Shown: positions 16,677 to 61,556 of the stretch, one piece after another
Layout: every line of letters begins with the position of its first letter
How positions within the stretch are numbered: position 1 is the stretch's first letter
Position numbers and translations under genes: made by a program
Notes under the pieces: generated by a model
What the model was told of the DNA's origin: nothing
The model's database searches: none
The model's input: the letters and a program-made list of their open reading frames with translations, nothing else
Assembly: GCA_963666985.2 (NCBI GenBank)
Contig: CAXXIA010000002.1
Coordinates: 2,464,001 to 2,528,000 of the forward strand
DNA: 64,000 bases
From: Spirochaetia bacterium
GTDB taxonomy: Bacteria > Spirochaetota > Spirochaetia > DSM-2461
Direction of reading: 5' to 3'

Positions 16677-16784
16677 CGGGGGTGCAGCCTCTTGTTAGGG
16701 ATTATTTTGTAATAATAGTATATTAATACGAAGAAACACCAGTGTCGAAATGCGCATATCCGTATTTCGTTCGCGGGAATGTAT

Positions 16785-16811
16785 AAAAAACCGCCGGGGG
16801 AAACCCGGCGG
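16785..16811 (-). terminator. Rho-independent terminator of the ato operon
   Basis: ccgccggg/cccggcgg stem followed by a U6 tract on the minus strand. Confidence 0.75.
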
Positions 16812-16838
16812 CAAATATCAATCACTCCGGATGCACAA

Positions 16839-18170: not shown

Positions 18171-18260
18171 GAAACACCTCCACGTATGGTTTTCCGTTTG
18201 GTAAAGGAGCCGTTGTTCGGTGCAGCAAAGCGGGGCGGCGTTATTCGCCGCCCCGGAAGA

Positions 18261-18929
18261 TCAATCTCCGAAGTCGTATTCTTTGCAGTCGTCGGCGACG
18301 ACAAAATCAGCTTTTGTATGTTCGATGATGTATTCGGGTGTCGCCGGAGCGAAATACTCTTTAATAATAAATGCATTGTCTCCGATTTCGAAAAGTCCGA
18401 GATCGGTAACGATGTAATCCACCTCACCCTTGGCCGTCAGCGGAAGACTGCATTTTTTCACCATTTTTGTCGAACCGTCTTTATCAAAATGGACGGTCGC
18501 CGCAATAACGTTTTTGGCGCCGACGAGAAGATCCATGGCGCCGCCCATGCCCGGAACCATCTTCCCGGGAATCATGTAGTTGGCCAAGTCTCCTTTCTGA
18601 TCGGCTTCGAGAACGCCCAGAACCGTATAGTCGAGATGACCGCCGCGAATGATTCCGAAGGAAGTCGCGGAATCGAAGAATGCGCCTCCCGGAAGAATCG
18701 TTACGGGAGCTCCTCCGGCGTTTACGATGTTCGGGTTCGCCTCGCCTTCTCCGGGCTCGGGGCCCAGGCCCGTAAAGCCGTTTTCCGATTGCAGTACGAT
18801 ACTGACGCCTTCGGGAACGTAGTTGCCCACCAGGGTCGGGAGGCCGATGCCGAGGTTGACCACGTCGCCGTCTTTAAACATTCGGGCGATGCGTTTGGCG
18901 ATTTTTATTTTATCCGGTTTGTAGTCCAT
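18261..18929 (-). CDS. atoA: Acetoacetate/butyrate CoA-transferase beta subunit
   Basis: 'VNLGIGLPT', 'QSENG' (catalytic Glu), 'GMGGAMDL'. Confidence 0.9.
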   Translation of the reverse strand: MDYKPDKIKIAKRIARMFKDGDVVNLGIGLPTLVGNYVPEGVSIVLQSENGFTGLGPEPGEGEANPNIVNAGGAPVTILPGGAFFDSATSFGIIRGGHLDYTVLGVLEADQKGDLANYMIPGKMVPGMGGAMDLLVGAKNVIAATVHFDKDGSTKMVKKCSLPLTAKGEVDYIVTDLGLFEIGDNAFIIKEYFAPATPEYIIEHTKADFVVADDCKEYDFGD

Positions 18930-19606
18930 TAATTCCCCCCCAGCACAAGGTAATCCACGAAGATTCCCGGCGTAACGATGGTTTCGGGATCCAGTTCGCC
19001 GATTTCGACGATTTCATCGACTTCGGCGATCACAGTTTCACCGGCGGTGGCCATCATCGGGCAGAAATTCCGGGCCGAAGCGGCGTATGTAAGGTTGCCC
19101 GCTTTATCCGCTTTGGCGGCTTTTATGAGCGTTACATCTCCCTTAAGGGCTTTTTCCAGGAGAAACTCACGGCCGTCCATCGTGATTTTTTCTTTACCTT
19201 TTTCAACCTCGGTGCCCACGCCCGTGGGAGTGAGGATGCCGCCCAATCCGGCGCCGGCGGCACGAATCCGCTCGGCGAAGGTGCCTTGAGGCACCAGCTC
19301 CACTTCGGCTTCGCCGGAGATCATCTGCCTCTGGGTTTCTTTATTCAGGCCGATGTGACTGGCGATGAACTTGCGAAACTGCTTTGCCAGGACATTAAGG
19401 GCCACGCCGGTCGCCTTGGACTCATCACCCTGGTAGAGGGCGTTGTCGCTGCAGGCGAGAACCATGTCTTTACGTCCGGATTCCAGCAGAGCTTTCATCA
19501 GAAGCGGCGGAGTTCCGACGCCCATGAATCCGCCGACCAGCAGCGTATCACCGTCTTTAACGTGCGAAATCGCTTCCGCGGCACTTACAACGGGTTTCTC
19601 TTTCAT
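18929..19606 (-). CDS. atoD: Acetoacetate/butyrate CoA-transferase alpha subunit
   Basis: 'DGDTLLVGGF', 'PQGTFAERIRAAGAG', 'TPGIFVD'; ATG at 19606 overlaps the thiolase stop. Confidence 0.9.
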   Translation of the reverse strand: MKEKPVVSAAEAISHVKDGDTLLVGGFMGVGTPPLLMKALLESGRKDMVLACSDNALYQGDESKATGVALNVLAKQFRKFIASHIGLNKETQRQMISGEAEVELVPQGTFAERIRAAGAGLGGILTPTGVGTEVEKGKEKITMDGREFLLEKALKGDVTLIKAAKADKAGNLTYAASARNFCPMMATAGETVIAEVDEIVEIGELDPETIVTPGIFVDYLVLGGN

Positions 19607-46068: not shown

Positions 46069-47037
46069 ATGAATTCCCGGCGGGGAATGCGTATCTTTAT
46101 TATTGTGGATAAGAAGCGTAAAAAAAGAGATTTTGCGATAGCCTTCGGCGGCGGCGGAGCCCGGGGCATTGCGCATGTCGGGGTTTTGGAAGTCCTGGAA
46201 AGAGAAAAGCGTTTACTGCCGGGGATTGTCAGCGGTACGTCCGTGGGAGCCATTATCGCCGCCTGTTATGCTTCTCAGACCGATTCTCAATCGATTCATG
46301 AAGTGATCGACGGTTTTGATTGGTTTGAGAATGTGGTGAATCTGAACGAAACCCTGCGGTATCGATTACGGAATCATGGTCTTGTGTCCAACGATAAGCT
46401 GAAAGATACCATGGAGGAGTTGATCGGGAAGGTCGGATTTGAAGATTTGCCGATTGATTTGGCCGTTGTCGCCGCGGATTTGGAGAAGAAAGTCCGGATT
46501 GTTTTCACTTCTCCGAGAATCGCGTCCGGAATGGAGAGGGCCGTAATGGAAAAATTTCTTCCTTCTCCTCGGGAAGGACTCCCCGGGTGCAAAACGGAAA
46601 TTATCAGTGATTGTGAAGTGGCTCAAGCGGTACAGGCCAGCTGTGCCGTTCCGGCTTTTTTTTATCCGGTAAAAGCCTTTGGATACAAGATTCTGGACGG
46701 CGGTGTTCTGAATCAGATTCCCGTTGATGTTGCGAAAGCCATGGGTGCCGACATTACCATGGGTGTGAGTTTGGGACTTCCGTTCTATCCTCAGAGAATT
46801 AGGGGCGCCGCTTCCATAATGGGCGCCAGGATAGGTTTGGAAGGAGTTCATCAGCAGAGAAAGAGTCTGGATATGGCCGATTTGGGTTTTCAGATTGAAG
46901 GTATCGAAGAAACCAGCTTTCTTAGAACCGATAAAGAACGTCTTATCGGGCTTGGCGAGACGGCAATGGAAAAACGGCTGGAGATTTTAAAGAAACTGCT
47001 GTCCGAAAAGAAGCCGCGCCGGTCGCTCCTTAATTGA
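46069..47037 (+). CDS. Patatin-like phospholipase (start uncertain)
   Basis: 'GGGGARG', 'GTSVG', 'DGG'. Confidence 0.88.
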   Translation: MNSRRGMRIFIIVDKKRKKRDFAIAFGGGGARGIAHVGVLEVLEREKRLLPGIVSGTSVGAIIAACYASQTDSQSIHEVIDGFDWFENVVNLNETLRYRLRNHGLVSNDKLKDTMEELIGKVGFEDLPIDLAVVAADLEKKVRIVFTSPRIASGMERAVMEKFLPSPREGLPGCKTEIISDCEVAQAVQASCAVPAFFYPVKAFGYKILDGGVLNQIPVDVAKAMGADITMGVSLGLPFYPQRIRGAASIMGARIGLEGVHQQRKSLDMADLGFQIEGIEETSFLRTDKERLIGLGETAMEKRLEILKKLLSEKKPRRSLLN

Positions 47038-47038
47038 C

Positions 47039-47084
47039 GGGGATTTATTTCCCCATAAGGTTGCTAAAGGGGATTTATTTCCCC
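47039..47084. promoter_or_regulatory. Tandem palindromic enhancer (UAS) sites
   Basis: GGGGATTTATTTCCCC twice (47039 and 47069), 30-bp period, about 170 bp upstream of a sigma54 promoter. Confidence 0.7.
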
Positions 47085-47253
47085 TTTATTCATCAAACAT
47101 AAATCCGGGGAATTCAAATGACAATAAAAAATCTCGTTCCCGGCGAATGATGCAGCCATTGGTTTAAATATATAATGCGAATAACTTTATGAATCCAAAA
47201 TTAAGAAAAAACATGTGTCCGATTCAGAATCTGTATATTCCTTTGAACTGTTG

Positions 47254-47269
47254 TGGCACGAGATTTGCA
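47254..47269 (+). promoter_or_regulatory. sigma54 (-24/-12) promoter
   Basis: TGGCAC-GAGAT-TTGCA, consensus match. Confidence 0.85.
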
Positions 47270-47298
47270 TTTATATGAGAAATCAAGGAGGACGTTTT

Positions 47299-48264
47299 AT
47301 GAAACGACTTGTATCGGTTCTTTGTTCCGTTGTTCTTTTGTTGGCTCTCGGAATGCCTTTATCGGCTTCCGGTCAGGATGAGAAAGGTGACGGCCAGAAG
47401 ACTTTGGCTGTCTGCCTTCCCGGAAGTGTTGAGTTCTTTTCCGTTCAAAAAAAAGGAATGGATAAAGCCGCCGCTCAATACGGATTGAAACTGATATATT
47501 CCGATGCCGAATGGGATGCCGCCAAACAGTTAAGTCAGGTTGAGAACTTCGTAGCACGAGGCGTTGATGCCGTTATGTTGTGTTCCGCCGATAATCAGGC
47601 ACTTATGCCGGCTGTAAAACTGTGTAATGATTCCGGGATTCCCCTTTTTACATTTACGAATACCTTAGGTGCCGATCCTAACGGACAGGTTGACGGTACG
47701 GTAACGTTCATCGGTATAAATGAAATTTCTCTCGGGCATATGATGGGTAAAATGGCCGAATCCGTATTGGGAAATGAGGCGGCGAATATTGTCTTGATTG
47801 AAGGAAATCCGGGCACGGCTCCGCAAAGAATGAGAACCGAAGGTTTTATGGAAATCGTAGGTAAACATGACAAATGGAATGTCGTTTATCAGCAAGCCAT
47901 TCCCGGCTGGACTAAGGAAGGCGCACTCGCCGCCGTTGAGGCGGCTCTTCAATCCGGAGAAACCATTAATCTGATCAGCTGCCAATGGTATAACGGTGCC
48001 ACAGCCGCGGCACAGGCGATTGAGGAATCCGGACGAACCGAAAAAATCTATGTAACCGGTTTGGAATTCTCCAAAGAACTGATTCCCATGATTCAGGACG
48101 GCAAAGTTGATATGACGTCGAATTATTCCATTGAAGATTCGGGATTCACGGTTATTGAAACCGCCTATAAATACTTTCAGGGTGAAAAAATCCCTTCATT
48201 TATTCCTTTGGAGGCATACATTGTCGATAAAGGGAATGTCGACGGTATAACACCGGAACTTTAG
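47299..48264 (+). CDS. Sugar ABC transporter (CUT2) substrate-binding protein
   Basis: AGGAGG RBS, signal peptide; 'DAEWDAAKQLSQVENFVARGVDA' Peripla_BP fold. Confidence 0.9.
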   Translation: MKRLVSVLCSVVLLLALGMPLSASGQDEKGDGQKTLAVCLPGSVEFFSVQKKGMDKAAAQYGLKLIYSDAEWDAAKQLSQVENFVARGVDAVMLCSADNQALMPAVKLCNDSGIPLFTFTNTLGADPNGQVDGTVTFIGINEISLGHMMGKMAESVLGNEAANIVLIEGNPGTAPQRMRTEGFMEIVGKHDKWNVVYQQAIPGWTKEGALAAVEAALQSGETINLISCQWYNGATAAAQAIEESGRTEKIYVTGLEFSKELIPMIQDGKVDMTSNYSIEDSGFTVIETAYKYFQGEKIPSFIPLEAYIVDKGNVDGITPEL

Positions 48265-48274
48265 AGATTGCTTT

Positions 48275-49471
48275 ATGAACTGGGGAACTCAGCTCTTTTT
48301 AAGCAAAGTTGAAAAAGAAACATATCCCGTAAGGAAGCTGGAATGGAAGCTCTCAAGGATTTTGGGAAAATCCAATATTGGGAAACTGATATTCTGGAAT
48401 ACTCGGGAAGATGAATATACCGATTCCGTTTTAAGACTTTGCCGGGAATTTGATGTTGAGTGTTGGCTGTGGTTCCCCGTTCTGGCGGATTCCGTCGTCC
48501 CGTCTGAGAATGCCCGTCCTGCGGTGAATCATAGGGGTGAGTATGGAATTCGTCCGCCCGGATCCATTAATAAGCCGGAAAAGGGAGAAGAGAATTTTAC
48601 TTTCTTTTGTCCTTCGGATGAGTCGTTTGAAGAACTGACAATAAAGACTCTTTCGGATTTAGTGGATCGATACGAATATACGGGAGTCTTCCTGGATCGT
48701 ATTCGTTATCCCTCTTTCGCAAACGGTCTGCCGCTGCAATATTCTTGTGTCTGCCCCGCGTGCTGCCGGAAGATGGGAATTGATTCGGAGGCGCTTTATT
48801 CCGAATTGGATTTCATAAAAGGGAAGGATTTCCTCAATCTGTTCCGTATGGGTGCGGAGTGTGAAAAAAGTTCGAACCGATTTCCTGAAGTGAAACGATT
48901 TTTTCGGCACCGGATGGGGCTGATTACCGAGAAAGTGAGGAGATTGAGGGAACCTGTAAAAGCCGTAGGAATGGGGCTTGCGCTTGATCTTTTTACACCG
49001 GCTCTGGCATTTTCGGTCGGCCAGGATTATTCGGCATTAAGCGGGATTGCCGATTGGATAAAGCCGATGACTTACGGCTTGGCCTGGGGACCCGCGGGAA
49101 TCCCGTTGGAACTGGACTGTCTTTATCGGGGTTTGACGCAGAGCTTTCCCGAATTACACAAAGAAGAAGTCATGGCGGCGATTGAGAAACTGATGAATTA
49201 TAAAATCACGCCGTATTGGGAAGGAAGATCGGATACGGGTTTCCCGACTTCCCTGGTTTATAACGAATGGAACACAGCTAGGCAATTCTCCGATAAATGT
49301 CTCTTTTTTCCCGGAATAGAAATGGTTCATAGCGAACTGTTTCGAACGAAGGTTCCGGAATATCGTGTGAAAGAGGCTATCGAACTCTTTGGAAACAGAA
49401 CGGATATTATCGCCTGCTGGAATTGCCTTGATATACCTGAATCTTATTTTGCTTTATTGGATAAGAGCTGA
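48275..49471 (+). CDS. Hypothetical cytoplasmic protein, possibly glycoside-hydrolase-like TIM barrel
   Basis: 'FFCPS', 'GVFLDRIRYP', 'CVCPAC', 'VGQDY...DWIKPMTY'. Confidence 0.55.
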   Translation: MNWGTQLFLSKVEKETYPVRKLEWKLSRILGKSNIGKLIFWNTREDEYTDSVLRLCREFDVECWLWFPVLADSVVPSENARPAVNHRGEYGIRPPGSINKPEKGEENFTFFCPSDESFEELTIKTLSDLVDRYEYTGVFLDRIRYPSFANGLPLQYSCVCPACCRKMGIDSEALYSELDFIKGKDFLNLFRMGAECEKSSNRFPEVKRFFRHRMGLITEKVRRLREPVKAVGMGLALDLFTPALAFSVGQDYSALSGIADWIKPMTYGLAWGPAGIPLELDCLYRGLTQSFPELHKEEVMAAIEKLMNYKITPYWEGRSDTGFPTSLVYNEWNTARQFSDKCLFFPGIEMVHSELFRTKVPEYRVKEAIELFGNRTDIIACWNCLDIPESYFALLDKS

Positions 49472-49474
49472 TCT

Positions 49475-50965
49475 ATGCCTCAAATACTGCTGTCTCTGGA
49501 CGGAATTAACAAAAGTTTTTCGAATGTTTCTGTTTTGCGGAATATTGATTGGGATGTTCATTATGGGAAGGTTCACGCCCTCTTGGGGGAAAACGGAGCC
49601 GGGAAGTCGACTTTAATTAAGATTATTTCCGGCGTCTATACCGCAAGTTCCGGAACGGTTTCCCTCGAAGGTCGGCAATTGGATTTCACATCTCCTCAAG
49701 ATGCGGTCAAAGCCGGAATCAATGTGATTTATCAGGAAACGAGTCTGATTCCTACATTAAGTGTTCTGGAAAATGTTTTTCTTGGAATTGAACCTAAAAA
49801 ACATAACGTCATCGATTCGGTCGCAATGAGAAAAAAATATGCCGAGGTAAACGCACAGATTGGAATTGATATAAACCCCGAGCAAAAGATTTCGCTTCTC
49901 GGTATCGCCGAGAAAAAAATCGTTGAGATTATGAAGGCTCTTGCAAGAGAAAGCCGGTTGATCATTATGGATGAACCGACAGATTCCCTGTCGGGGAAAG
50001 AAGTCTCTCTCCTTTTTAACGTCATATCGGATTTAAAAAAGCGGGGAATTACCATCATCTATATTACGCATTTCCTTGATGAGGTTTTTCGGATTTCCGA
50101 TAGAATCACCATCCTTAAGGACGGCCGGCTGGTTTCGGATGCCGATGCCGATGAAATGTCGGTTGAACTTATCGTCAAATCCATGGTCGGCGATGTAATG
50201 AAATTGGAAAAAGCTCCGGATTATCCCTCCAAATCATCCGAACCGCGATTATCGGTTAAGAACTTGGTTCCCGATGATGATGTTCCGTCAAGCAGTTTCT
50301 GTCTCTATCCGGGAGAAGTGCTTGGAATCACCGGTGTGGTCGGCGCGGGGAAATCGGAATTGGGGAGAGCCTTGTTCGGGGCGGCAAAAAAGAAATCCGG
50401 GGAAATAATCTTGGACGGAAAAATCTGTCGGATCAATTCTCCCAAGGATGCGGTGAGAGCCGGTATCGGAATGACGACCGAGGATCGAAAAGATACGGGA
50501 TTGCTCCTGGATGATTCTATTCTCCATAACCTTACCTTAGCGTCCCTGCAAAAACATATGCGGAAAGGTTTTATTTCAACGGGACTGGAATTGAAGCTCT
50601 ATAAAGGGACAAAAGAAAAATTGGGAATAAAGTGCACCGATTCCGATCAGCATCTGCGTTTCCTCAGCGGCGGGAATCAGCAAAAGGTCGTTATCGGAAA
50701 GTGGCTGGCGGCCGATCCGGATATCCTGATTATGGATGAGCCGACCAGAGGAATCGATATCGGCGCGAAGCAAGCGGTTTATCAAATTATCAGAGCGTTG
50801 GCCGCGGCCGGGAAGTCGGTAATTTTCATATCATCCGAGGTTCCCGGGGTTCATGCTCTTTGTCATCGGATTCTGGTGATGGGCAGAGGTTCTATCCGGA
50901 AGGAATTCTTTCCTGAAGATCCCATTGAAGCCGTTATGAAAGCTATGCTGGAAGGAGAAGTTTAA
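49475..50965 (+). CDS. Sugar ABC transporter ATPase (RbsA/MglA-like, two NBDs)
   Basis: 'GENGAGKST', 'LSGGNQQKV', 'DEPTRGIDIGAK'. Confidence 0.93.
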   Translation: MPQILLSLDGINKSFSNVSVLRNIDWDVHYGKVHALLGENGAGKSTLIKIISGVYTASSGTVSLEGRQLDFTSPQDAVKAGINVIYQETSLIPTLSVLENVFLGIEPKKHNVIDSVAMRKKYAEVNAQIGIDINPEQKISLLGIAEKKIVEIMKALARESRLIIMDEPTDSLSGKEVSLLFNVISDLKKRGITIIYITHFLDEVFRISDRITILKDGRLVSDADADEMSVELIVKSMVGDVMKLEKAPDYPSKSSEPRLSVKNLVPDDDVPSSSFCLYPGEVLGITGVVGAGKSELGRALFGAAKKKSGEIILDGKICRINSPKDAVRAGIGMTTEDRKDTGLLLDDSILHNLTLASLQKHMRKGFISTGLELKLYKGTKEKLGIKCTDSDQHLRFLSGGNQQKVVIGKWLAADPDILIMDEPTRGIDIGAKQAVYQIIRALAAAGKSVIFISSEVPGVHALCHRILVMGRGSIRKEFFPEDPIEAVMKAMLEGEV

Positions 50966-50968
50966 CGG

Positions 50969-51928
50969 ATGAATCTTACGGATAAATTTAATCAAAAGAA
51001 CGTGAGGCAAATAACTCAGAAATACGGAATTATGATTCTTTTTTCTATATTAAGCATCATTATTTCGATAGTTACTCCCAATTTCCTTAATGCTCAGAAC
51101 ATCATAAACATCCTTCGGCAAAGTTCGATAATCGGCGTTATGGCTATAGGAACCACCTTCGTTATTATCGGCGGAGGCTTTGATATTTCCGTCGGCAGCG
51201 TGTTGGCGCTTTCGGCCGCCATGGCGCTGGGATTGCAGGCTCAGATGCATTGGCTGGCAAGTACGGTTATTGTTCTTCTTGTCGGTATCGGCATTGGGTT
51301 GGCCAACGGTTTTTTATCCGCGAAGATCGGCATCGTACCGATTATCGCCACGCTGGGAACTCAGACCGTTGTCCGCGGTCTTACCTATATGTATACCGGC
51401 GGATATCCTGTTACCGGCGATTCGCAGAGTTTTCAGTTTATCGGTTCCGGATATATCGGGAAGATTCCCTTCCCGATCATTCTTTTCCTGACCATGGTCG
51501 CCCTTTGGCAGTTTGTTTTAAGTAAAACTCCCCTCGGACGTTACAGCTGTGCAATCGGAGGGAATAAAGAATCCACGAGACTCTCCGGTGTTAATGTCGA
51601 TTTTTACCAGATTATGACTTTTGTTATCGGCGGAGGGATGGCGGCTCTTTCGGGAATTATCTATGCGGCCAGACTCAGTTCCGCCACGCCTTTGGCCGGT
51701 CAGGGATATGATCTAGATGCTATTGCCTCAACGGTTATCGGCGGAACAAGTGTATCAGGAGGGCAGGGAAGCATCGTCGGCACGCTGATCGGTGTGCTTC
51801 TTATGACTATTCTAAACAATATGTTTAATCTTATGGGTGTTCAAGTGTATGTTCAGTATTTGGTAAAGGGTATGATTATTCTTCTTGTTGTGGGAATTGA
51901 TTCTTATTCGAAGAAGCAGAAAAACTAG
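50969..51928 (+). CDS. Sugar ABC transporter permease (RbsC-like)
   Basis: 'GFDISVGS', 'AIGGN', 'DAIASTVIGGTSVSGG'. Confidence 0.93.
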   Translation: MNLTDKFNQKNVRQITQKYGIMILFSILSIIISIVTPNFLNAQNIINILRQSSIIGVMAIGTTFVIIGGGFDISVGSVLALSAAMALGLQAQMHWLASTVIVLLVGIGIGLANGFLSAKIGIVPIIATLGTQTVVRGLTYMYTGGYPVTGDSQSFQFIGSGYIGKIPFPIILFLTMVALWQFVLSKTPLGRYSCAIGGNKESTRLSGVNVDFYQIMTFVIGGGMAALSGIIYAARLSSATPLAGQGYDLDAIASTVIGGTSVSGGQGSIVGTLIGVLLMTILNNMFNLMGVQVYVQYLVKGMIILLVVGIDSYSKKQKN

Positions 51929-51979
51929 ATTTTCATAACCCGTTGGAAACCGGATGTTTAGCTTTAAAAAGAAAATAGA

Positions 51980-53299
51980 ATGGGCCGAAGCAGAATCCTG
52001 ATTATTGATGATGAATTGGAATTCTGCCTCTCAATGAAGGATTTGTTTGAGGATTCAGGCTATTCCTGCATCTACTCGACCGATCCTGAGAAGGCGGCCG
52101 ATCTTCTGCGAAAAGAAAAAATCGATCTGGTTCTTCTTGATTACAAGATGCCTCGTGTAAATGGGATTGAACTTCTCAGCTGTATCAGAGAAGAGAATTC
52201 CGAACTGCCGATAATTCTCGTCTCCGGATATATCGATATTGAGACAACGGTTCAAGCCATGCGGATTGGGGCTCTGAACGTCTTAAGGAAACCGGTGCGC
52301 TTTGCTCAGCTGGAAGAAGAAATCGCGCGAATCCTAAATACGTCCGGTGGCGCCTTCAGATCGGATTCTTCGATTATCAGCGGCGATAAAAAGGTCCTTG
52401 AGATTTTTGGTTCCATAAAGAAGGTTGCGGAAACAAACGCTCCGGTGTTAATTACCGGAGAGAGCGGAACCGGGAAAGAATTGATCGCCGAGGAAATCCA
52501 TCGGCTGAGCGGTCGTACTCAGCATCCTTTTGTTAAACTCAATTGTGCGGCTTTGCCCGAGTCTTTATTGGAAAGTGAGCTTTTTGGTCATAAGAAAGGC
52601 GCGTTTACCGGTGCCCTGGAAAATCGTTCCGGCCGCTTCATCGCCGCACATCAAGGGAGCCTCTTTCTTGATGAAATTGGTGATATGAACCTGCTGACTC
52701 AGGCAAAACTATTAAGAGTTTTACAAGATGGAAAAGTTACGGTTCTCGGATCTGATAAGCCTCAAAATGTTGATGTTCGAATTATTGCCGCTACCAATAA
52801 AAATCTTTTTTCCATGATGAAGGAAGGTCTCTTTCGAGAAGATTTATTTTATAGGCTTTCGGTTGTCCATTATGATCTCCCCCCTTTACGTGAAAGATCC
52901 GGAGATATTCTTCTTTTAAGCAGTTTTTTTCTAGAAATGGCTTGTTATGAATACGGTCGGAAAATAAATGGTTTTGATGCCGAGGTGGAAAAGATCCTCC
53001 TTTTTCATCCTTGGCCCGGGAATATTAGGGAATTAAAAAACTGTATTCAGCGCGCGGTGATTTTCTGTGAGAATACCCTGATTTCCGCTGGAGATCTTCC
53101 CGAACAATATAAGAGGGTTGGAAAACCGGGCTGGACGGACGGATACGAAAAAGCGATTGACAATATTAATAGAGAGTTGATTGAAGAGGCTTTAAGAAAA
53201 AGCGGCGGGAAGAAAGCTCTTGCCGCTCAATTGCTGAAAATTGACAGGAAGACTCTCTATAACAAAATAAAAAAGTTAAACATTCAGGGATTTGAGTGA
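51980..53299 (+). CDS. NtrC/AtoC-type sigma54 response regulator
   Basis: REC ('IDDE', 'LDYKMP'), 'GESGTGKE', 'GAFTGA', Fis HTH. Confidence 0.93.
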   Translation: MGRSRILIIDDELEFCLSMKDLFEDSGYSCIYSTDPEKAADLLRKEKIDLVLLDYKMPRVNGIELLSCIREENSELPIILVSGYIDIETTVQAMRIGALNVLRKPVRFAQLEEEIARILNTSGGAFRSDSSIISGDKKVLEIFGSIKKVAETNAPVLITGESGTGKELIAEEIHRLSGRTQHPFVKLNCAALPESLLESELFGHKKGAFTGALENRSGRFIAAHQGSLFLDEIGDMNLLTQAKLLRVLQDGKVTVLGSDKPQNVDVRIIAATNKNLFSMMKEGLFREDLFYRLSVVHYDLPPLRERSGDILLLSSFFLEMACYEYGRKINGFDAEVEKILLFHPWPGNIRELKNCIQRAVIFCENTLISAGDLPEQYKRVGKPGWTDGYEKAIDNINRELIEEALRKSGGKKALAAQLLKIDRKTLYNKIKKLNIQGFE

Positions 53300-55122
53300 A
53301 CAGCCGGAGATTGCTTCAAGTCAAAGGCGTCTCCTATTCGTACGGGATAAAACAGGCCCTTTTTGGAGTTGGTTTTGATCTGCTTCCGGGCGAAATCCAT
53401 GCCTTGGTAGGCGATCATCGAGCGGGAAAATCCACTTTAATCCGGATTATTTGCGGAGCGCTTCGATGCCGCAAAGGGGAAATTATCCTTCCAGAGGGCA
53501 AATTCGCCGGGCTGTCTCCACGGAAAGCACGCCAACTGGGAATTGGTGCGGTGTTCCAGGAGGAGATGCTTGTTCCTTCATTAAGTACAATTGATAACGT
53601 TTTCTCCGGCCGTTTCGCGGTCTATCCCGGCGGAATTATCCGATGGCGTCGGCATATAGATGAATTTACTCGTTTTTGCCGAAAGTTGGATTTGGATTTT
53701 GATTTTACGAAACCCGTTGGTCAATTGGACAAAGTTAATCAGCATCTTGTTGAGTTTTTAAGGGCGATTTATTTCGATCCTTCCATACTCATTCTGGATG
53801 AAATATCCACTCGATTTACTCCGAGAGAAATGGATTTCATTTATCGGATTATTTTGGATATGAAGAAAAAGGGAAAAGGCATTATTTATATTTCCCATGA
53901 TATGGATGAAGTCATGGAATTTGCAGATAGGGTGACCATCCTGAGAAACGGCCGTTGCAGAAAGACTGAAAATATCCGCAATCTGGATAAAATGCAGCTT
54001 TATTATATGACCTATTCCCATGAGTTATCCAGAAAGGAACTTCGTCAGGCAAATTATGAACTCTACAATTTTAAACGATACAATGAAGCCATTATCCGGA
54101 ACATCCCGGTTGGTGTTGTTATTCTGGATAAGGACAATGGAATCTATCAGGTAAACCAAGCCGCTGAAAATTTGCTGTCTCCTTTTTCCGCCGATGAGCT
54201 TACTCTTGAAAAAATTTTCTCACGAATCGATAAAAGTTCGGTTCATAAAATTCTTTTGGCGATCCGGTCAAAGAAGCGAATGCATTTGGAAAATCTCCCC
54301 TTCGGCGATGAACATATTATTGATTTTTTTTGTTCTCCATTTACGGGTGACGCTGGGGAACTCAGCGGAACAATTTTACTGATTAACAATAAAACGGAAG
54401 AGCATAACGCAAAGGAATATATGAGAAGAACGGAACAGATTTCCTCTATTGCGGAACTGGCCGCCGGCGTGGCGCATGAAATTAATAACCCTCTTAATAT
54501 CATTTTGAATTACATGGATCTGATTACCCTTGAAACCCAGAAGGAATCATCCATTATTCGGCTGAAGAAGATTGAAAAGGAAATCCAGAGAATCTCGGAA
54601 ATTACCGGGAGTCTGCTTTCGTTCTCCAAAGTGAATAATGTGGAATTAGTCGAGTGTGATTTAAGGCAGGCACTTAAAGAAGCGGTACTTCTCCTGAAAT
54701 ATCGTATAGAGAAGAAAAAAGTTGTTTTCTCAATGGAGATTCCGGATGAACCTGTTGTTATCACAGGGAATTTAAATAAACTCGAGCAAGTATTTATCAA
54801 CTTGCTCATAAACAGTCTGGATGCTCTTGAAGCTGGCGGAAAGATTCGGGCCTGTATCCGTTATGAAAATAACAATGTATATGCGGCTGTGTCCGACAAT
54901 GGACCGGGGATTGAACATTCTATTGTCTCAAAAATTTTTGATCCCTTTTTCACTACTAAAATTGAAGATAAGAATTCCGGCCTCGGCTTAACCGTCTCGA
55001 TGCACATCATTATGGAACATAATGGGCTTCTTGAATGCCATAGTGAAGGCGGATGGACGACATTCGGAATTCGGCTTGCCGCCTGTTCTTCGAAAACGTA
55101 TCGAAAAGAAATTATCGATTGA
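53296..55122 (+). CDS. ABC-ATPase-PAS-histidine kinase fusion protein
   Basis: N-terminal NBD ('GDHRAGKST', Q-loop 'VFQE', 'ILILDE', 'YISH'); PAS-like 'NIPVGVVILD...VNQAAE'; 'AHEINNPL', 'NLLINSLDA', 'DNGPG', 'FDPFFTTK', 'GLGL'; no TM helix. Confidence 0.9.
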   Translation: MNSRRLLQVKGVSYSYGIKQALFGVGFDLLPGEIHALVGDHRAGKSTLIRIICGALRCRKGEIILPEGKFAGLSPRKARQLGIGAVFQEEMLVPSLSTIDNVFSGRFAVYPGGIIRWRRHIDEFTRFCRKLDLDFDFTKPVGQLDKVNQHLVEFLRAIYFDPSILILDEISTRFTPREMDFIYRIILDMKKKGKGIIYISHDMDEVMEFADRVTILRNGRCRKTENIRNLDKMQLYYMTYSHELSRKELRQANYELYNFKRYNEAIIRNIPVGVVILDKDNGIYQVNQAAENLLSPFSADELTLEKIFSRIDKSSVHKILLAIRSKKRMHLENLPFGDEHIIDFFCSPFTGDAGELSGTILLINNKTEEHNAKEYMRRTEQISSIAELAAGVAHEINNPLNIILNYMDLITLETQKESSIIRLKKIEKEIQRISEITGSLLSFSKVNNVELVECDLRQALKEAVLLLKYRIEKKKVVFSMEIPDEPVVITGNLNKLEQVFINLLINSLDALEAGGKIRACIRYENNNVYAAVSDNGPGIEHSIVSKIFDPFFTTKIEDKNSGLGLTVSMHIIMEHNGLLECHSEGGWTTFGIRLAACSSKTYRKEIID

Positions 55123-55238
55123 TGAGGTCTTGGGGTGTCGGTGAGTATTTCTCGAAATCCGGCGGTTTTTCTCCTCGGCCGTCGGCATAAACTGTCTCCG
55201 GTGAGATGTTTTCCCCGTAATTCTCTTTCCGAATAAAA

Positions 55239-56961
55239 GGGGCTGTCTCATAAGAGGCGGCCCTTTTTCATGTCTGGAAGAATTCCCTTCTGAATTCAAG
55301 GGTGGTAGAATTCTTCATGGACACTAAAAAGAAGGCTACATTCAAAGATTACGAAATCAGCCAACAGATGCTCCTGCCTCCAAGTCTCGATGAACTGCTT
55401 CCCGCAAACCATATATCCCGCACAATCAACAACTTCATCGACACGATGGATACCAGTGAGCTCTTCAACGCCTATCCGGGAGGCGGTGCCAGCAGCTACC
55501 ACCCGGTGATGATGCTGAAGGTTCTGGTGTTGGCCTACTCGAAACAGCTGTATTCCTGTCGTCAAATCGCAGACGCTCTTCGTGAGCAGATATGCTTCAT
55601 GTGGATCAGTGGTAATAACCGTCCTGATTTCCACACGATAAACAGATTTCGTAACGGTCCATTGAAGAAGAGCATCGAGAAAATCTTTGCCTCAATGGCC
55701 AACAGCCTCATCGAGAGCGGACATGTCCAGATGGAGAACTACTTTCTCGACGGCACAAAAATCGAATCAGCAGCTAACAAATACACATGGGTATGGGGCC
55801 GGGCGACAGACAAGTTCCAGAAGCGCCTGGCCGGCAATATGGATGAGCTTTTCGAATACATCGACCGCATCAATGAAGAAGAGGATGAGAAGTACGGCGA
55901 CCATGACCTTCCCCATGTGGATCCTCAAGGCAGGCCGATGTCGGAGATTCTCGAAGATGCGGTATCCAAGCTCAATGAAGAGCTGCGCAAGGATCGGGAG
56001 GAGCGAGAAAAGAAGGAGATTCAACGGAGATTGAATACCGCTAGCAAGGACTATCTCCCTCGTGCCAAAAAGTATGAGCAGCAGAAGAGAATCCTCGGCG
56101 ACCGAAATAGTTACTCGAAAACAGACTATGATGCGACTTTCATGCGGATGAAAGAAGACTATATGAAAAATGGTCAGCTCAAGCCCGGGTACAACATCCA
56201 AATGGGTACTGAGAACCAGTTCATCCTCGGATATAGCATCCACCAGAGTCCCGGTGACTCCCTGACATTGCCGCTACATATGGAGAAACTGAAAAAGAAT
56301 CTGAAACGCTATCCGAAAAGAATCATTGCTGATTCAGGATATGGTAGTGAAGAGAACTACCAGTGGTGTGAGGATCATGGTGTCGAGAAGTACATCAAGT
56401 TCAGCTACTTCCACAGGGAGCGGAAACGGAAGTTCAAGAAGCAGATTCATATGAAAGAGAACTGGGACTATCGTGCCTCTGATGATACATACCGGTGCCC
56501 CAAGGGTCGCCGATTCAAACACGAGGAGACCAGAATCTCGAAAACAGGTTCAGGATTTCCGACCACTGAAAAAAGGTATACAGGCCCTGGATGCCAAAGG
56601 TGTTCTCTCCGAATCCGGTGCTGCAAATACGGAGGCAAAGAGCGCATCCTGACGGTTCGTCCAAACCTGGAACGGCATAAGTCTGAAGTGCGCAAGTTGC
56701 TGACTTCAGAGGAAGGACTGAGAATGCGCTCTCTCAGGCCGATTGAAGTCGAATCTGTATTCGGAGATATCAAGACGAATATGGGATTTCGGAGATTCCG
56801 AACCAGGGGATTGAAGATGGTCAGTACTGAATGGGGACTGTTGAGTATGGCTCATAACATGAGGAAGCTACAGAAACGATAAGGGGATGGGAGGGAACCT
56901 CCCGTCTTCGGAGGTCAACCAAATTTTAAAAGGGGCTGTCTCAAACTAATGAGACAGCCCC
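55239..56961 (+). mobile_element. IS1182-family insertion sequence
   Basis: Inverted ends GGGGCTGTCTCATAA ... TAATGAGACAGCCCC around a transposase; exact ends ambiguous. Confidence 0.85.
55317..56882 (+). CDS. IS1182-family transposase
   Basis: 'YHPVMMLK', 'PDFHTINRFR', 'DGTKIES', 'SKTDYDATFMRMK', 'ADSGYGSE', 'VESVFGDIK'. Confidence 0.93.
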   Translation: MDTKKKATFKDYEISQQMLLPPSLDELLPANHISRTINNFIDTMDTSELFNAYPGGGASSYHPVMMLKVLVLAYSKQLYSCRQIADALREQICFMWISGNNRPDFHTINRFRNGPLKKSIEKIFASMANSLIESGHVQMENYFLDGTKIESAANKYTWVWGRATDKFQKRLAGNMDELFEYIDRINEEEDEKYGDHDLPHVDPQGRPMSEILEDAVSKLNEELRKDREEREKKEIQRRLNTASKDYLPRAKKYEQQKRILGDRNSYSKTDYDATFMRMKEDYMKNGQLKPGYNIQMGTENQFILGYSIHQSPGDSLTLPLHMEKLKKNLKRYPKRIIADSGYGSEENYQWCEDHGVEKYIKFSYFHRERKRKFKKQIHMKENWDYRASDDTYRCPKGRRFKHEETRISKTGSGFPTTEKRYTGPGCQRCSLRIRCCKYGGKERILTVRPNLERHKSEVRKLLTSEEGLRMRSLRPIEVESVFGDIKTNMGFRRFRTRGLKMVSTEWGLLSMAHNMRKLQKR

Positions 56962-56985: not shown

Positions 56986-59403
56986 TCAGTTCTTCACTTC
57001 GAATTCCATCCGTGCGATGACATCATTCTGGAGTTCCCGATTCAGGGGTGTAAAGAACGCGCTGTATCCGGCGATTCGAACCATGAGGTCCCGGTATTCT
57101 TCCGGTTTCTCTTGAGCCTTTCGAAGAATCTCATCACCCAGAACGTTGAACTGAATATGGTATTGGTTGTTCCTAAAATGAGTTTTTACCAGGGATAGAG
57201 CACGATTTCGTCCCGCTTCCGTAGACAGGGAATCGGATGTGAGTCTCATGTTGAAGAGGGAACCTTTCTGGAACCAGATGGCCGGCAGTTTCCCTTCGGA
57301 GTTGATCAGCGCCGTTGGACCGTTTTGCTCCATGCCGTTGGAAGGTGAAACACCGTTGTTCATCGCTTCTCCGGCCTTGCGGCCGTTCGGGAGGGCGCCG
57401 ACGGATTTCCCGAAGGCGATATTGCCCGTTACCGAGCTCTGACTGAGCGCGAATGTTCCGGGGATGGGGCCTTTGCCGTAACGGGAACTTTTAAACTCCT
57501 TGAAATAGGTCGATCCCAAATAGTCGTCGATGGCGACGGTCCATCGATCCGCGTAATCGTCGTCGTTCCCGAATTTGGGAACTTTGTTGATCAGAGTTTG
57601 CCGGATTTCAAATCCCGTGGGAGAGGTCTCCTGATCTTCAAAGTTCGTTTTAAGCGCATGCATGAGCTGCCGCGGGGTGAAGATTTTTTTATCAAAGAGA
57701 ACATAATCTATTGCGGCGATGGAGTCTCCCGCGGTAACCGCTCCGGCTGTGGGACCTCCGTCGGCGGTGTAGCGTGCGCCGCCTTCAACCAGTGATTTAC
57801 CCCGTTCGATGCAGTCGTGTACCAGGGAAGAACGGAAAGCGTTTTGGTCGTGCAGGATGTGCATTTCATCACTGATATGCTCCACAATAACCTGCAGCTC
57901 CATATAGAAGTGCAGCTGTTTTTTATAAGCCGCCAGAATTGCATCCGCGCTTTTAAAAGTTTCCAGAGTTCCGTCTCCGGGTAGCAGTGTTTGTCCGGTG
58001 GCCGGATCGGTACCGTTGTTCAGCGTGATTTCGAACACTTTTCCAAGGTTCAGCCAGGAGCCTTTGGCCGCGAAGTCCCATTTCCCGGGTACCGAAGCTT
58101 CTATGCATCCTACGGGCGCCCAAGTGTAGAGGTCTTCGTCGGCGACTCCCATGTTTTTCAGAATGCGCATTACTCCCGCATCATTGTAAAGGGCGGGCTG
58201 ACCGCCTTTATGCGCCTGTATCGTCCGAAGCACCTCGTCCATGAACGCATCGTCGGTTCCTTCAAACCACTTCATTGAAACCGAAGGTTTGGTAAGGCCC
58301 ATCTGTGCGGTGGCGTCCAGAATGATTCGCGTCAAATCGTTCACCGCGTTTTTTCCGTCCGCGGTTTGGCCTCCGACGGCCAGATTCTCCGCAAGGTGAT
58401 AACCCGGAAAAAACTCGCTGTCGGACCATGAGCGAAGCTTGTTGATTTCATTGCACTTGATGAAAAACGATTCCACCAGTTCCAGGGCGAATTCCCGCGT
58501 TATGGCGCCGGAAGCAAGGTCGGCTTCCAAAAAGGGCCACAAGTATTGGTCGAATCGTCCCAGAGAAACAGCATGACCGTTGGTTTCAATTTGGATGGCC
58601 AAATGAACAAACCAGACGGTTTGAATCGCTTCCCAGAAGTTCCGGGCCGGTTCCGCCGGAACCCTGCGGCAGTTTTCGGCCATTTTTTTCAGTTCCGCCT
58701 TACGGGCCGGATCCGCGGCTTTTTCGGATTCTTCGACGAGTTTTTCGGCGAAACGCCCGGCGAAGTTGATAACCGCTTCATTGGAGCGAATAACCGCTTC
58801 AAGAAACCAGGATTGATTGATGGCTCCCGGTTCGGTCATATCGAGGTTCTTCAGGCGTTCTTTCGCTTGAGCGATAACGCCGTTCAGTCCTGCGCGGAGT
58901 ACCATTTCGTGGTCCGGCAGAACATTGCCCAATCCGGCGGCCGCGCACCAGGTATCGTCGATGGCGTTCAGTTCCCAGGCTTTTCGCGCCGCTTCCGGCA
59001 ATTGATCCCACACGCAGCTGATAAGAGATTTGTTTTCCCAATATGCGATGGTTTTTAGAACACGTGACTTGGTTTCTTCCGTATAGCTGAATTGATCACA
59101 GGGCCTTTCATGAAAATGGTAGGGATTTCCTTCGAATTCCTCAACGATCCACCGGGTTGAGTATTCCGGAAATACGGGTGCCGCATGAACGGAACTTGCC
59201 TGATTCCCTACCAGCAGTTCTCCGTCCCTGACAAGAATGGACATCCTGTCGAGAACATCATAAAAGGCGTCGGCCCGTCTTTTAACAATGGGGCGGCCTT
59301 CACTTTTTTTCATTGATTCGGTAAAGATTTCTGCCCGTTCCGGACATATCGCCGGAAAACTCTCGAATAGTCCGTTACGTAATTTTTGGATTCGATCGGT
59401 CAT
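56986..59403 (-). CDS. Glycyl radical enzyme, non-PFL (eliminase-type), substrate unknown
   Basis: 'SLGRFDQYL', single-Cys loop 'VGCIE', Gly loop 'HIQFN...VRIAGYS'; AGGAG RBS before ATG 59403. Confidence 0.92.
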   Translation of the reverse strand: MTDRIQKLRNGLFESFPAICPERAEIFTESMKKSEGRPIVKRRADAFYDVLDRMSILVRDGELLVGNQASSVHAAPVFPEYSTRWIVEEFEGNPYHFHERPCDQFSYTEETKSRVLKTIAYWENKSLISCVWDQLPEAARKAWELNAIDDTWCAAAGLGNVLPDHEMVLRAGLNGVIAQAKERLKNLDMTEPGAINQSWFLEAVIRSNEAVINFAGRFAEKLVEESEKAADPARKAELKKMAENCRRVPAEPARNFWEAIQTVWFVHLAIQIETNGHAVSLGRFDQYLWPFLEADLASGAITREFALELVESFFIKCNEINKLRSWSDSEFFPGYHLAENLAVGGQTADGKNAVNDLTRIILDATAQMGLTKPSVSMKWFEGTDDAFMDEVLRTIQAHKGGQPALYNDAGVMRILKNMGVADEDLYTWAPVGCIEASVPGKWDFAAKGSWLNLGKVFEITLNNGTDPATGQTLLPGDGTLETFKSADAILAAYKKQLHFYMELQVIVEHISDEMHILHDQNAFRSSLVHDCIERGKSLVEGGARYTADGGPTAGAVTAGDSIAAIDYVLFDKKIFTPRQLMHALKTNFEDQETSPTGFEIRQTLINKVPKFGNDDDYADRWTVAIDDYLGSTYFKEFKSSRYGKGPIPGTFALSQSSVTGNIAFGKSVGALPNGRKAGEAMNNGVSPSNGMEQNGPTALINSEGKLPAIWFQKGSLFNMRLTSDSLSTEAGRNRALSLVKTHFRNNQYHIQFNVLGDEILRKAQEKPEEYRDLMVRIAGYSAFFTPLNRELQNDVIARMEFEVKN

Positions 59404-59429
59404 ATGTTTGTTCTCCTCAAGAGAATGAG

Positions 59430-59443
59430 TGAAAACGCTTTCA
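59430..59443. promoter_or_regulatory. LacI-type operator 1 (GRE gene)
   Basis: TGAAAACGCTTTCA. Confidence 0.75.
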
Positions 59444-59561
59444 CTATGTTCATAACATAACATGCTTTTCTAAATATCGCAAATTGAATATTTCCGGCTT
59501 TCCGGCGATGAAAAAGACTCATCGAAGTGTTTTTACGGAAATAGGAAGAAACGGTCCCGAA

Positions 59562-59612
59562 TTGACAGGTGTTCTTCGGGCCTTTACTATGAATAAATTG
59601 AAATCGGTTTCA
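59562..59612 (+). promoter_or_regulatory. sigma70 promoter plus LacI-type operator 2 (regulator/activase operon)
   Basis: TTGACA-17-TACTAT, then TGAAATCGGTTTCA at 59599-59612. Confidence 0.75.
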
Positions 59613-59625
59613 CCAAAAGGTCTGC

Positions 59626-60639
59626 ATGGGGCGCTATACCATTAATGAAATTGCTGAAATCTGCCATACCTCACCGGCTACGGTGTCGCGGGTTCTTAAC
59701 AATCCTCATCTGGTTGCCGAGCCCTTAAGAAAAAGAATCCGGAAAACGATGGAAGAGGTTGGGTACAGGCCGAATCCGTTCGCTTCACGCTTAAGCTCCC
59801 GCTCCGGCTGGGGATTGGCCCTTTTCGTCTTCGATATTCTGAATCCCTTTTTCGCTCTTATCGTGAGGAAGATCGGCCATTTGGCCATGGAACAGGGGAT
59901 TCCCCTGACCATCTGCGATACCGAGAATAACGAGGAAAAGGAAAAGATGTTCCTCGATTACCTTCTGGATAATCAGATAGGCGGCATTATTTTCGGTGAA
60001 GGTATTTCCGCGGGAACCATTGAACGGGCCATGGATTCCACCGAGACGGTTCTGATCGACAGGCATTTAAAGGAAGGTTTGGTTTCCGAAGTCACCAGCG
60101 ACAACTATCGCGGCGCCTGCCAGGCGGTTGAATATCTCTATCAATTGAGTCATCGCCGAATCGGTTTTATCGGCGGGCCCGAGAGCTGGGCTTCGGTTGA
60201 GGAGCGGTTTCGCGGGTATCGGGACACTCTGGAACGCAACGGAATACCCTACAATCCCGCCCTTATGTTCCGGGGAGATCTCCGTTTTGAGTCGGGGATC
60301 GGGGCGCTGGAGTATTTTCTGACCCTTCCCGAATGGCCGACGGCAATCTTCAGCGCCAACGATCAGATGGCGTTCGGCGTTCTTACCAAGGCTAAGGCCA
60401 TGGGGATTGATGTTCCCGGCGATATATCGCTGATCGGTTTCGACGATATTCCTCTCTACAGCTTGTATTCGACGAGGCTTACGGCGATACAGCAGGACAT
60501 CGACGCTCTCTGCGAGAATGCTTTTCGAATTATGATGGAAAAATTGAACGGAACGCCGGAAGAGGGCCCTAAGGATAGAGTCGTCGTACCGACGCGTTTA
60601 AAAACGGGCGAAACCTGCGGGAAATGCTCCCGACCGTGA
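59626..60639 (+). CDS. LacI-family transcriptional regulator
   Basis: 'TINEIAEICHTSPATVSRVLN', 'YRPNPFA', 'NDQMAFG', 'SLIGFDDI'. Confidence 0.93.
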   Translation: MGRYTINEIAEICHTSPATVSRVLNNPHLVAEPLRKRIRKTMEEVGYRPNPFASRLSSRSGWGLALFVFDILNPFFALIVRKIGHLAMEQGIPLTICDTENNEEKEKMFLDYLLDNQIGGIIFGEGISAGTIERAMDSTETVLIDRHLKEGLVSEVTSDNYRGACQAVEYLYQLSHRRIGFIGGPESWASVEERFRGYRDTLERNGIPYNPALMFRGDLRFESGIGALEYFLTLPEWPTAIFSANDQMAFGVLTKAKAMGIDVPGDISLIGFDDIPLYSLYSTRLTAIQQDIDALCENAFRIMMEKLNGTPEEGPKDRVVVPTRLKTGETCGKCSRP

Positions 60640-61556
60640 ATATTAATGCAATTCTTTTTGATATAGAACGTTATGCCCTTGAAGACGGTCCGGGTATCAG
60701 AAGCGTCGTGTTCTTTAAAGGGTGTAATCTGCGCTGTCTTTGGTGTCAGAATCCTGAATCGCAAGACGGGAATCCTCAAATACTGTATTCACGGAACGAA
60801 TGCATCGCCTGCGGCCGATGTGCCGAAATATGTCCTGTTGATGCAATCCGGGATGTTCCGGATTTCGGCTATGTTACGGATCATTCGGTTTGTACTGTCT
60901 GCGGCAAATGCGTGGATGCCTGCTATACGGGAGCAAGGAAAATCGTCGGTCGAAGCATGGATATCGATTCGATCATGGAAGAAATACTTAAAGACAGGGA
61001 TTTCTACAGGGAATCCGGCGGCGGAGTCACTTTTTCCGGCGGCGAGCCCCTTTTGCAGGATGCGGTTGTATCCGCGCTGGCCCTGCGGTGCCGGGAACAA
61101 GGAATTCATACGGCGCTTGAAACCGCCGGTTTCGTTTCGCGTTCCGTTTTGGATAAGATTGTGCCCTTAATAGATCTTATTTATTTCGATTTGAAGCACA
61201 TCGACTCCGGTGAACACCGGAAATTTACCGGCGTTCCCATAGAGCCGATCCTCGAAAACTTGAAAGCGGTCTCGGCTTCGGCGGCCCGCCTTATCGTTCG
61301 GATTCCTCTTATTCCGCATGTGAATGATGATAATAAAACAATAAGCCGGATGTTTGAATTTCTGAAGAAGGAATGCGCGGGGCCCGAAGTGGAAATCCTG
61401 CCTTTCCATCGCCTCGGTTTGGGGAAGTACGAAGGATTGGGGCGGAGTTATTCAATGGCCGCAACCTTGAATCTGGGAAAGGCCGATTGTGAACCGTTTG
61501 CGGAGCTGGGAAGAGCGATGGGACTCGTGGTTCGAACCGGAGCCGGCGGGGTTTGA
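60636..61556 (+). CDS. Glycyl-radical enzyme activating enzyme with ferredoxin-like insert
   Basis: 'DGPGIR...KGCNLRCLWCQNPE', two CxxCxxCxxxC motifs, 'SGGEP'; GTG start overlaps the LacI stop. Confidence 0.93.
   Translation: MNINAILFDIERYALEDGPGIRSVVFFKGCNLRCLWCQNPESQDGNPQILYSRNECIACGRCAEICPVDAIRDVPDFGYVTDHSVCTVCGKCVDACYTGARKIVGRSMDIDSIMEEILKDRDFYRESGGGVTFSGGEPLLQDAVVSALALRCREQGIHTALETAGFVSRSVLDKIVPLIDLIYFDLKHIDSGEHRKFTGVPIEPILENLKAVSASAARLIVRIPLIPHVNDDNKTISRMFEFLKKECAGPEVEILPFHRLGLGKYEGLGRSYSMAATLNLGKADCEPFAELGRAMGLVVRTGAGGV

Follow-up and report, generated by a model that had tools for sequence, protein, structure and literature searches.

We analyzed a 64,000-nucleotide stretch of the genome of a Spirochaetia bacterium (assembly GCA_963666985.2, contig CAXXIA010000002.1, positions 2,464,001 to 2,528,000 of the forward strand; hereafter the window, in whose numbering coordinates are given unless another locus is named), in which a sugar importer operon ends in a gene for a histidine kinase that begins with the nucleotide-binding domain (NBD) of a transporter of the ATP-binding cassette (ABC) type. 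This kinase of 608 amino acids (aa) (53296..55122, plus strand) belongs to a family of single origin whose members nearly always stand beside genes for an NtrC-type regulator and for a CUT2 importer, the latter behind a consensus sigma54 promoter.

Upstream of the operon lie two identical copies of a palindrome, GGGGA-N6-TCCCC, matched by sequence and assigned to neither strand, one at 47039..47054, which is a likely upstream activator site, and the other 30 bp downstream at 47069..47084. A sigma54 -24/-12 promoter with the consensus TGGCAC-N5-TTGCA follows on the plus strand (47254..47269). Both elements had been pointed out in an earlier note on this DNA, and both exceed chance: two identical palindromes compare with 0.23 expected in the window, and the promoter is the window's sole match (0.03 expected) and belongs to a set of 8 strict matches genome-wide; RpoN is encoded as well. 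The exact palindromic 16-mer has no further occurrence across the genome. The stop codon of a patatin-like gene (46069-47037) ends 1 bp ahead of the first palindrome.

The six genes of the operon lie on the plus strand, with intergenic gaps of 10, 3, 3, and 51 bp followed by a 4-bp overlap. They encode an RbsB-like sugar-binding protein (47299..48264; Peripla_BP_4, 5.5e-50), starting at an ATG after AGGAGG (a longer open reading frame [ORF] with a GTG start would begin upstream of the promoter); a 398-aa putative glycoside hydrolase-like enzyme (48275..49471); an intact two-domain transport ATPase of the RbsA type (49475..50965), with GENGAGKST and, in its C-half, LSGGNQQK; an RbsC-type permease of the BPD_transp_2 family (50969..51928), with an EAA-like loop, GGNKESTRLSG, at residues 197 to 207; an NtrC-type regulator (51980..53299) with a receiver (D54), a sigma54 AAA+ domain with GAFTGA, and a Fis helix-turn-helix; and the kinase, whose GTG start overlaps the regulator stop as GTGA. 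This arrangement is the one described in the earlier note, which had called the second gene simply an enzyme; the gene is present, but its identity goes as far as an Atlas look-alike, GHL10 (score 0.98), and the protein has no Pfam or NCBIfam match. Importer operons of 5 related loci retain it, and it may point to the substrate of the operon, which is likely a sugar or small glycoside. A scan for sigma70 promoters and terminators stayed at chance level, and the 51-bp gap before the regulator has no terminator.

The kinase comprises an ABC NBD derived from an RbsA N-half (53308..54024), a fixed-length linker helix with a PAS-like domain (54025..54411; PAS E value of 1.9e-4, also seen in the model), and HisKA (H394) followed by HATPase_c with N, G1, F, and G2 boxes (54451..55077), all on the plus strand. 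That these run in one frame, as first noticed from the sequence, is borne out by Pfam (ABC_tran at residues 24 to 170, 58.6 bits against a cutoff of 25; HisKA at 386 to 447; HATPase_c at 493 to 594), with PAS at 264 to 358 slightly below its cutoff (21.8 versus 22.6), by an AlphaFold model with separate ABC, PAS, DHp, and CA modules (mean pLDDT of 82.9) that is confident for each domain and not for the domain arrangement (pTM of 0.44), and by Foldseek matches of this model to ABC ATPases and LOV/PAS kinases. A hydropathy scan of the protein found no membrane segment, in agreement with the earlier note, and the NBD motifs named there are all in place: GDHRAGKST at residues 39 to 47 (Walker A, 53410-53436), Q88, the degenerate signature LDKVNQ at 144 to 149, ILILDE at 164 to 169 (Walker B, 53785-53802), and YISH at 198 to 201, with H201 as the H-loop His. 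By its boxes and Pfam matches, the C-terminal part is an NtrB-like histidine kinase of the HisKA/HATPase_c type, predicted to autophosphorylate and to transfer phosphate to the regulator.

The architecture search and CUT2 co-occurrence check proposed in the earlier note recovered a conserved family. The best 120 matches, here the near set, are the window protein and 119 others at 40 to 65% identity and 96 to 100% coverage, and ABC_tran, HisKA, and HATPase_c are found in 120/120; among the 150 matches listed in a profile search of 50%-identity representatives, 136 are 560 to 700 aa long, and the family comprises more than 130 clusters at 50% identity. Source labels are mostly Spirochaetota, with Ca. 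Moduliflexus, Vecturithrix, Gynuella, deltaproteobacteria, and Planctomycetota also represented, and the family is present in 21 of 41 close genomes and in at least 14 of 401 genomes across the phylum, where scoring was limited to 3 candidates in each. A phylogeny of 358 NBDs unites the 72 from kinases in a single clade (support of 0.994), which also includes one further single-domain sequence and adjoins the N-halves of CUT2 ATPases (support of 0.933); the fusion thus has a single origin, in an RbsA N-half. Databases often label members, from spirochaetes, planctomycetes, and others, as AtoS or "ATP-binding cassette domain-containing protein." No description of an NBD-kinase architecture was found in full-text searches of a library without most subscription papers, as judged by titles and the starts of abstracts, though domain censuses in supplements could contain one, and the PDB matches listed include no solved structure of the fusion. 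The architecture is thus real and conserved, and apparently uncharacterized.

Variants of the fusion exist. Two proteins of 471 to 473 aa (P0329 and P0336) join the NBD straight to DHp/HisKA without PAS, so the PAS domain is dispensable in some members; both have lost the Q-loop Gln, the Walker B Glu, and the H-loop His. The ESM Atlas holds other ABC_tran plus HisKA clusters as leads (scores of 0.84), one PAS-less, two longer, and at least one with GAF. Possible further fusions of the same design are clusters of about 850 aa with ABC_tran, GAF_2, and HisKA, chiefly from Actinomycetota, and one of 515 aa with ABC_tran and HisKA, chiefly from Spirochaetota. The actinomycetotal form had no match in 61 genomes, and a Chloroflexota form had none in 301 and 61 genomes; these searches scored 4 or up to 26 candidates in each genome. 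No longer fused forms of the kinase occurred among 28 candidates in a weak search, and of 2,086 matching plasmid records none reached 80% query coverage.

Constraint on the NBD equals that on the kinase core, and PAS is the most variable part: column conservation is 0.68 in the NBD versus 0.70 and 0.59 in the kinase core and 0.55 in PAS, and mean distances are 0.96, 0.92, and 1.81, respectively. Kinase core residues H394, N502/N506, G536, F551, and G562/G564 are invariant in 120/120 near members, which also match the RbsA N-half at K/R50 (118/120), Q88 (120/120), N101 (111/120), G105 (119/120), and K/R156 (119/120) and retain the Walker B Glu (120/120) and the H-loop His (119/120). The near family thus agrees with RbsA around the Q-loop and the ENI helix and at basic positions that likely face the permease. 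Residue 50 is a putative EAA-loop contact by analogy with Arg47 of MalK, a contact that was not found in PMC3150292. Across a deeper set of 137 representatives, K45, S/T46, and D168 are kept jointly in 128, together with the catalytic Glu in 116, and with the H-loop His as well in 78. An SGG or LSGGQ signature occurs in none of the 137. The degenerate signature to which the earlier note drew attention is inherited, since the N-halves of RbsA carry one too (PMC11466899).

Other changes are specific to the kinases when compared with 84 RbsA N-halves. Position 41 of the P-loop, Asn in 84/84 of the latter and in 5/137 of the kinase NBDs, is His in 96/137 versus 0/84; the D-loop Pro at position 170 (81/84) remains in 4/137; and Lys or Arg at D-loop position 173 is found in 103/137 versus 0/84. 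When ABC domains dimerize, each NBD is described as completing its partner's site with its own signature, with the D-loops side by side, and the Q-loop region as receiving the coupling helix of the permease (PMC3971661). The changes at positions 41, 170, and 173 map to the NBD-NBD face. The linker between NBD and PAS measures 22 residues in 114/137, and the spacing from PAS to the H-box is fixed in 123/137, which is what signaling helices would show. We infer an NBD dimer that binds ATP, likely hydrolyzes it slowly, and hands its position on to the kinase.

Genomic context ties the family to one kind of importer. We compared 109 distinct loci besides the window, 77 of them well flanked (6 kb or more upstream and 5 kb or more downstream); the loci are related to each other and are not independent draws. 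A regulator adjoins the kinase in 77/77 of these, and a CUT2 permease with a separate ATPase lies within 7 kb in 73/77, accompanied by a binding protein in 72; in a second phylum the link holds in 13/15. The earlier note had held that a lack of full-length homologues, or of linkage to ABC operons, would count against it, and the 119 homologues and 73/77 linked loci show neither. In the controls, a nearby CUT2 permease was seen for 3 of 42 other kinases that this genome encodes and for 0 of 38 metagenomic kinase loci, a weaker control because those loci come from other taxa. The metagenome scan used a generic H-box pattern and gave 80 loci, 4 of them family members and 76 controls, of which 38 span at least 8 kb; a scan by DNA pattern found 57 true loci among 80 with flanks, with 20 further short-DNA loci unscored. 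The 73 linked loci show four gene orders: divergent in 46, downstream in 21, as in the window in 4, and convergent in 2. The neighboring ATPases are either two-domain and RbsA-type or single-domain, and the notion that the kinase NBD is the missing half of a split ATPase was rejected, since every neighbor inspected is whole, whether it has two domains or one.

The link has been formed repeatedly. Grouped together with 35 unlinked permeases, the 114 linked ones scatter over 30 separate groups (median identity of 32%), and distances between kinase and regulator correlate at r of 0.82 to 0.87 versus 0.24 to 0.38 for either against the permease; the pair has therefore been recoupled on many occasions, and nearly every time the new partner was a permease of this class. 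Type I permeases are the commoner kind in this genome (116 matches versus 65 to BPD_transp_2), and none is a partner in the exceptional loci whose genes were listed. One genome (G403) has six kinase copies, five by CUT2 importers and one by a LIV importer, and this one-importer-per-copy arrangement argues against a general gauge of ATP or energy. The LIV importer marks locus L028, which with L133, L270, and L280 makes up the four exceptions among the well-flanked loci; its permeases are of the same Pfam family as those of CUT2, and there, at 8324-19529, the kinase is divergent from a branched-chain aminotransferase and the LIV-type importer, with no sugar importer.

A sigma54-like site precedes a transporter gene in 42 of the 77 well-flanked loci and precedes the regulator in 0 of 73 loci of an earlier set, which includes three duplicates. 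Palindromes that share the 16-bp geometry are found again ahead of these promoters, as paired GGG-type sites in 7 of 50 upstream regions versus 0.18 in shuffles and in the form GTG-N10-CAC in 14 versus 1.9. Promoter, palindromes, and linkage together give strong genomic support to the prediction that the system controls the neighboring importer. Autoinduction of the operon, as the earlier note proposed it, holds up in this form for the importer genes, but autoinduction of regulator and kinase is no general feature, because in just 4 of the 73 linked loci do their genes come after those of the importer in the same direction.

Several loci show further arrangements. In two of them (L094, 6299-8267, and L042, 2590-4528), a second pair of binding protein and permease without its own ATPase shares 46 to 51% identity between loci; in L094 it stands directly after the kinase and is a candidate dedicated sensing pair, or else it shares RbsA. 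One CUT2 importer lies between two NBD-kinase systems of different subfamilies in L066 (9893-17921) and L139, and the second system has its own importer beyond. At G000:C2:1036781-1043978 and C2:2581739-2587382, sigma54 two-component systems with ordinary two-helix membrane kinases stand by CUT2 importers, a conventional solution beside the fused one in the genome that the window comes from.

Known systems offer partial parallels. In the transporter cosensors compared here, the kinase is described as contacting the transporter via membrane helices or an adaptor or as being fused to a membrane domain (PMC8534201, PMC4423584, PMC5715377). BceS of the BceAB-BceS-BceR system is reported to be a two-helix membrane kinase that contacts BceB via its membrane helices (PMC8534201, PMC10314905); like it, the kinase here lacks its own extracellular sensor, and it is predicted to control the adjacent ABC operon and would likewise read the transporter. 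Unlike BceS, it is soluble rather than a two-helix intramembrane kinase, carries an NBD, and acts through a sigma54 activator, and its partner is no BceAB-type resistance transporter but a binding-protein-dependent sugar importer of the BPD_transp_2 type, with which a complex is proposed. In PstSCAB-PhoU-PhoR/PhoB, a separate adaptor, PhoU, is described as bridging importer and kinase (PMC13577022, PMC4423584); there as here, a kinase with a PAS domain likely takes its orders from an ABC importer on the cytoplasmic side, but the six operon genes, to which the search for PhoU was confined, include neither PhoU nor a phosphate importer, and the NBD itself would be the bridge. MalK is described as a working motor that binds the one-component activator MalT (PMC10427625), and again the NBD of a sugar importer may tie transport state to transcription of the importer genes; here, by contrast, the kinase chain includes a remodeled NBD separate from the importer's ATPase, which is retained, and the regulator is NtrC-type rather than a STAND-type activator. 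The transporter-fused kinases KsAmt5 (PMC8534201) and the SLC5-STAC proteins such as CrbS (PMC5715377) are reported to carry a fused membrane domain; they likewise reuse a transporter part as histidine kinase input, whereas the part fused here is a cytoplasmic ATPase domain without a membrane segment. The system likely works like Bce, Pst-PhoU-PhoR, or MalK-MalT, yet it lacks the features that define each of them and those that define the transporter-fused kinases.

The components compare more directly. Residues ~5 to 250 match the N-halves of CUT2 ATPases (RbsA, YtfR, LsrA, XylG, AraG, and MglA; E values of 1e-49 to 1e-39), but the kinase has a single NBD with no C-half and no LSGGQ to complete the site, a P-loop of G[EAD]HRAGK or GEHGAGK in place of GENGAGK, a D-loop without Pro and with Lys or Arg, and a TYS/YTQ helix leading into PAS where the CUT2 N-half ends in an MVGR motif. 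With NtrB and AtoS kinases it shares the PAS-DHp-CA core, the HEINNPL H-box, and a sigma54 activator partner; unlike AtoS, it scores 220 bits versus an NCBIfam equivalog cutoff of 646, and the match covers only residues 255 to 596.

Our favored interpretation, to which we give a probability of roughly 0.5, is that this cytoplasmic two-component kinase takes its input through an NBD derived from the first half of a sugar-importer ATPase and would sense sugar by docking on the permease. Two NBDs of a kinase dimer would sit on the two coupling helices of the RbsC dimer in place of RbsA, both helices being within reach since the kinase is presumably dimeric; alternatively, one kinase NBD might sit beside a transporter NBD. 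A sugar-loaded binding protein would shift the permease, and the NBD pair would open or close with ATP in place, hydrolysis being slight or absent since the pair lacks an LSGGQ signature. The C-terminal NBD helix and the fixed-length linker could relay this movement via PAS to the kinase core, and the phosphorylated regulator would bind the paired palindromes and turn the importer operon on; when idle, the permease may restrain the kinase in the way that MalFGK2 at rest restrains MalT. In a tentative, more specific version, the kinase dimer replaces the motor ATPase on the permease dimer as a nontransporting ABC receptor beside the working importer, the power stroke driving His phosphorylation. 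We prefer docking because it best explains the recoupling to one permease class, the several copies per genome, and the PAS-less forms. Control by transport flux, part of the earlier proposal, is doubtful in the Bce sense, with LSGGQ missing from 137/137 representatives and the H-loop His lost in many.

A number of observations weigh against docking. Mirror-tree analysis of 44 loci gave an r of 0.27 for NBD and permease versus 0.35 for kinase core and permease (partial r of -0.15), and no NBD-specific signal was found with either the permease or the binding protein. Kinase and receiver distances covary (partial r of 0.41). The NBD resembles its cognate RbsA N-half across genomes (p of 0.0003, 16 groups), but this likeness is gone within genomes (rank 25 of 32; 102/120 permutations) and is rejected for that reason as an effect of composition or lineage. 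Docking on RbsC as the earlier note envisaged it thus drew no support from two coevolution tests. K/R50 is found in only 70/137 deep representatives, and none of the 77 well-flanked loci has a binding protein and permease without a transport ATPase; a docked kinase would have to compete with that ATPase, since every linked permease has its own. Some members have no importer nearby: one (L133, 7987-9804) lies beside LacI, araB, araD, and araA-like genes, and its stretch contains no importer, nor does that of another (L270), and a third (L280) has only binding-protein genes about 6 kb off. With 36 CUT2-like permeases in this genome, docking leaves its specificity unexplained, and a sigma54-dependent permease needs basal expression to act as a sensor.

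The main alternative is a soluble sensor, in which the remodeled NBD pocket, alone or with PAS, would bind an imported sugar, sugar phosphate, or nucleotide in the cytoplasm, the importer mattering only as supplier of the inducer. Such a sensor is in our judgment less likely than docking but is a live alternative and deserves the most weight among the rivals: it calls for no competition with RbsA and no NBD-permease covariation, it accommodates the members without a nearby importer, including the one beside arabinose catabolic genes, and the basic residues at the phosphate site that are specific to the family (H41 and K/R173) could serve it. It does not explain why the kinase was repeatedly re-paired with BPD_transp_2 permeases rather than with the commoner type I importers; PAS and binding protein do not covary (partial r of -0.08), and the importerless copy among the arabinose genes has lost the Walker B Glu and the H-loop His, which fits decay after loss of a partner. 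Still less probable is that the NBD pairs with another ATPase, either the C-half of RbsA, which would supply LSGGNQQ, or a single-domain ATPase, and reads its nucleotide cycle, making the kinase a true flux sensor or a MalK-MalT-like tether. A transport ATPase does accompany 73/73 linked permeases, and the Walker B Glu and H-loop His kept by the near members would make a site that an intact partner signature could complete; against this, the P-loop Asn and D-loop Pro of RbsA N-halves have been lost, likeness to the cognate C-half is absent after dereplication (p of 0.27 to 0.41), and K, S/T, D, E, and H are all kept in only 78/137.

That the NBD is a relic with a structural role, in dimerization or as a membrane tether, while the signal enters by PAS or another protein, we regard as very improbable. 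Distant members do lose Q-loop, Walker B Glu, or H-loop residues, and high variability such as that of PAS is often seen in ligand sensors, but the joint retention of K45, S/T46, and D168, an NBD conservation equal to that of the kinase core, and the PAS-less forms speak otherwise. The chance that the gene is a one-off fusion, a frameshift, or a misassembly is close to nil: an insertion sequence (IS) element does follow the kinase gene, but the 119 full-length homologues, from 109 distinct loci and in one clade, refute it, and together with a contig of the same sample that spans 52526-55262 with zero differences (and is not independent of the assembly) they argue that the ORF is not misassembled.

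Beyond the operon, a transposase gene with DUF772 and DDE_Tnp_1_6 (55302-56882) comes directly after the kinase, and its contig depth of about 10x that of the flanks indicates a multicopy IS. The stretch from 56986 to 61556 holds a PFL-like glycyl radical enzyme gene divergent from the genes of a LacI regulator and of an activating enzyme of the radical SAM type; a further gene for a sugar-binding protein comes next.

If docking is correct, the pump of a sugar importer doubles as a receptor, and an ABC domain acting as kinase input would link a phosphorelay directly to the conformational cycle of ABC proteins. Such a kinase would offer a small, reconstitutable system for how transporter state becomes signal, and also a way into CUT2 importers, whose permease had no relative in a PDB search. 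The many recouplings, together with ABC-kinase fusions that carry GAF or lack a middle domain, would then suggest a receptor module replugged into many importers and a wider design. The finding would also reannotate a family now labeled AtoS or as an ABC domain protein, and even if the NBD instead binds a soluble ligand, an ABC domain would have been turned into a ligand sensor.

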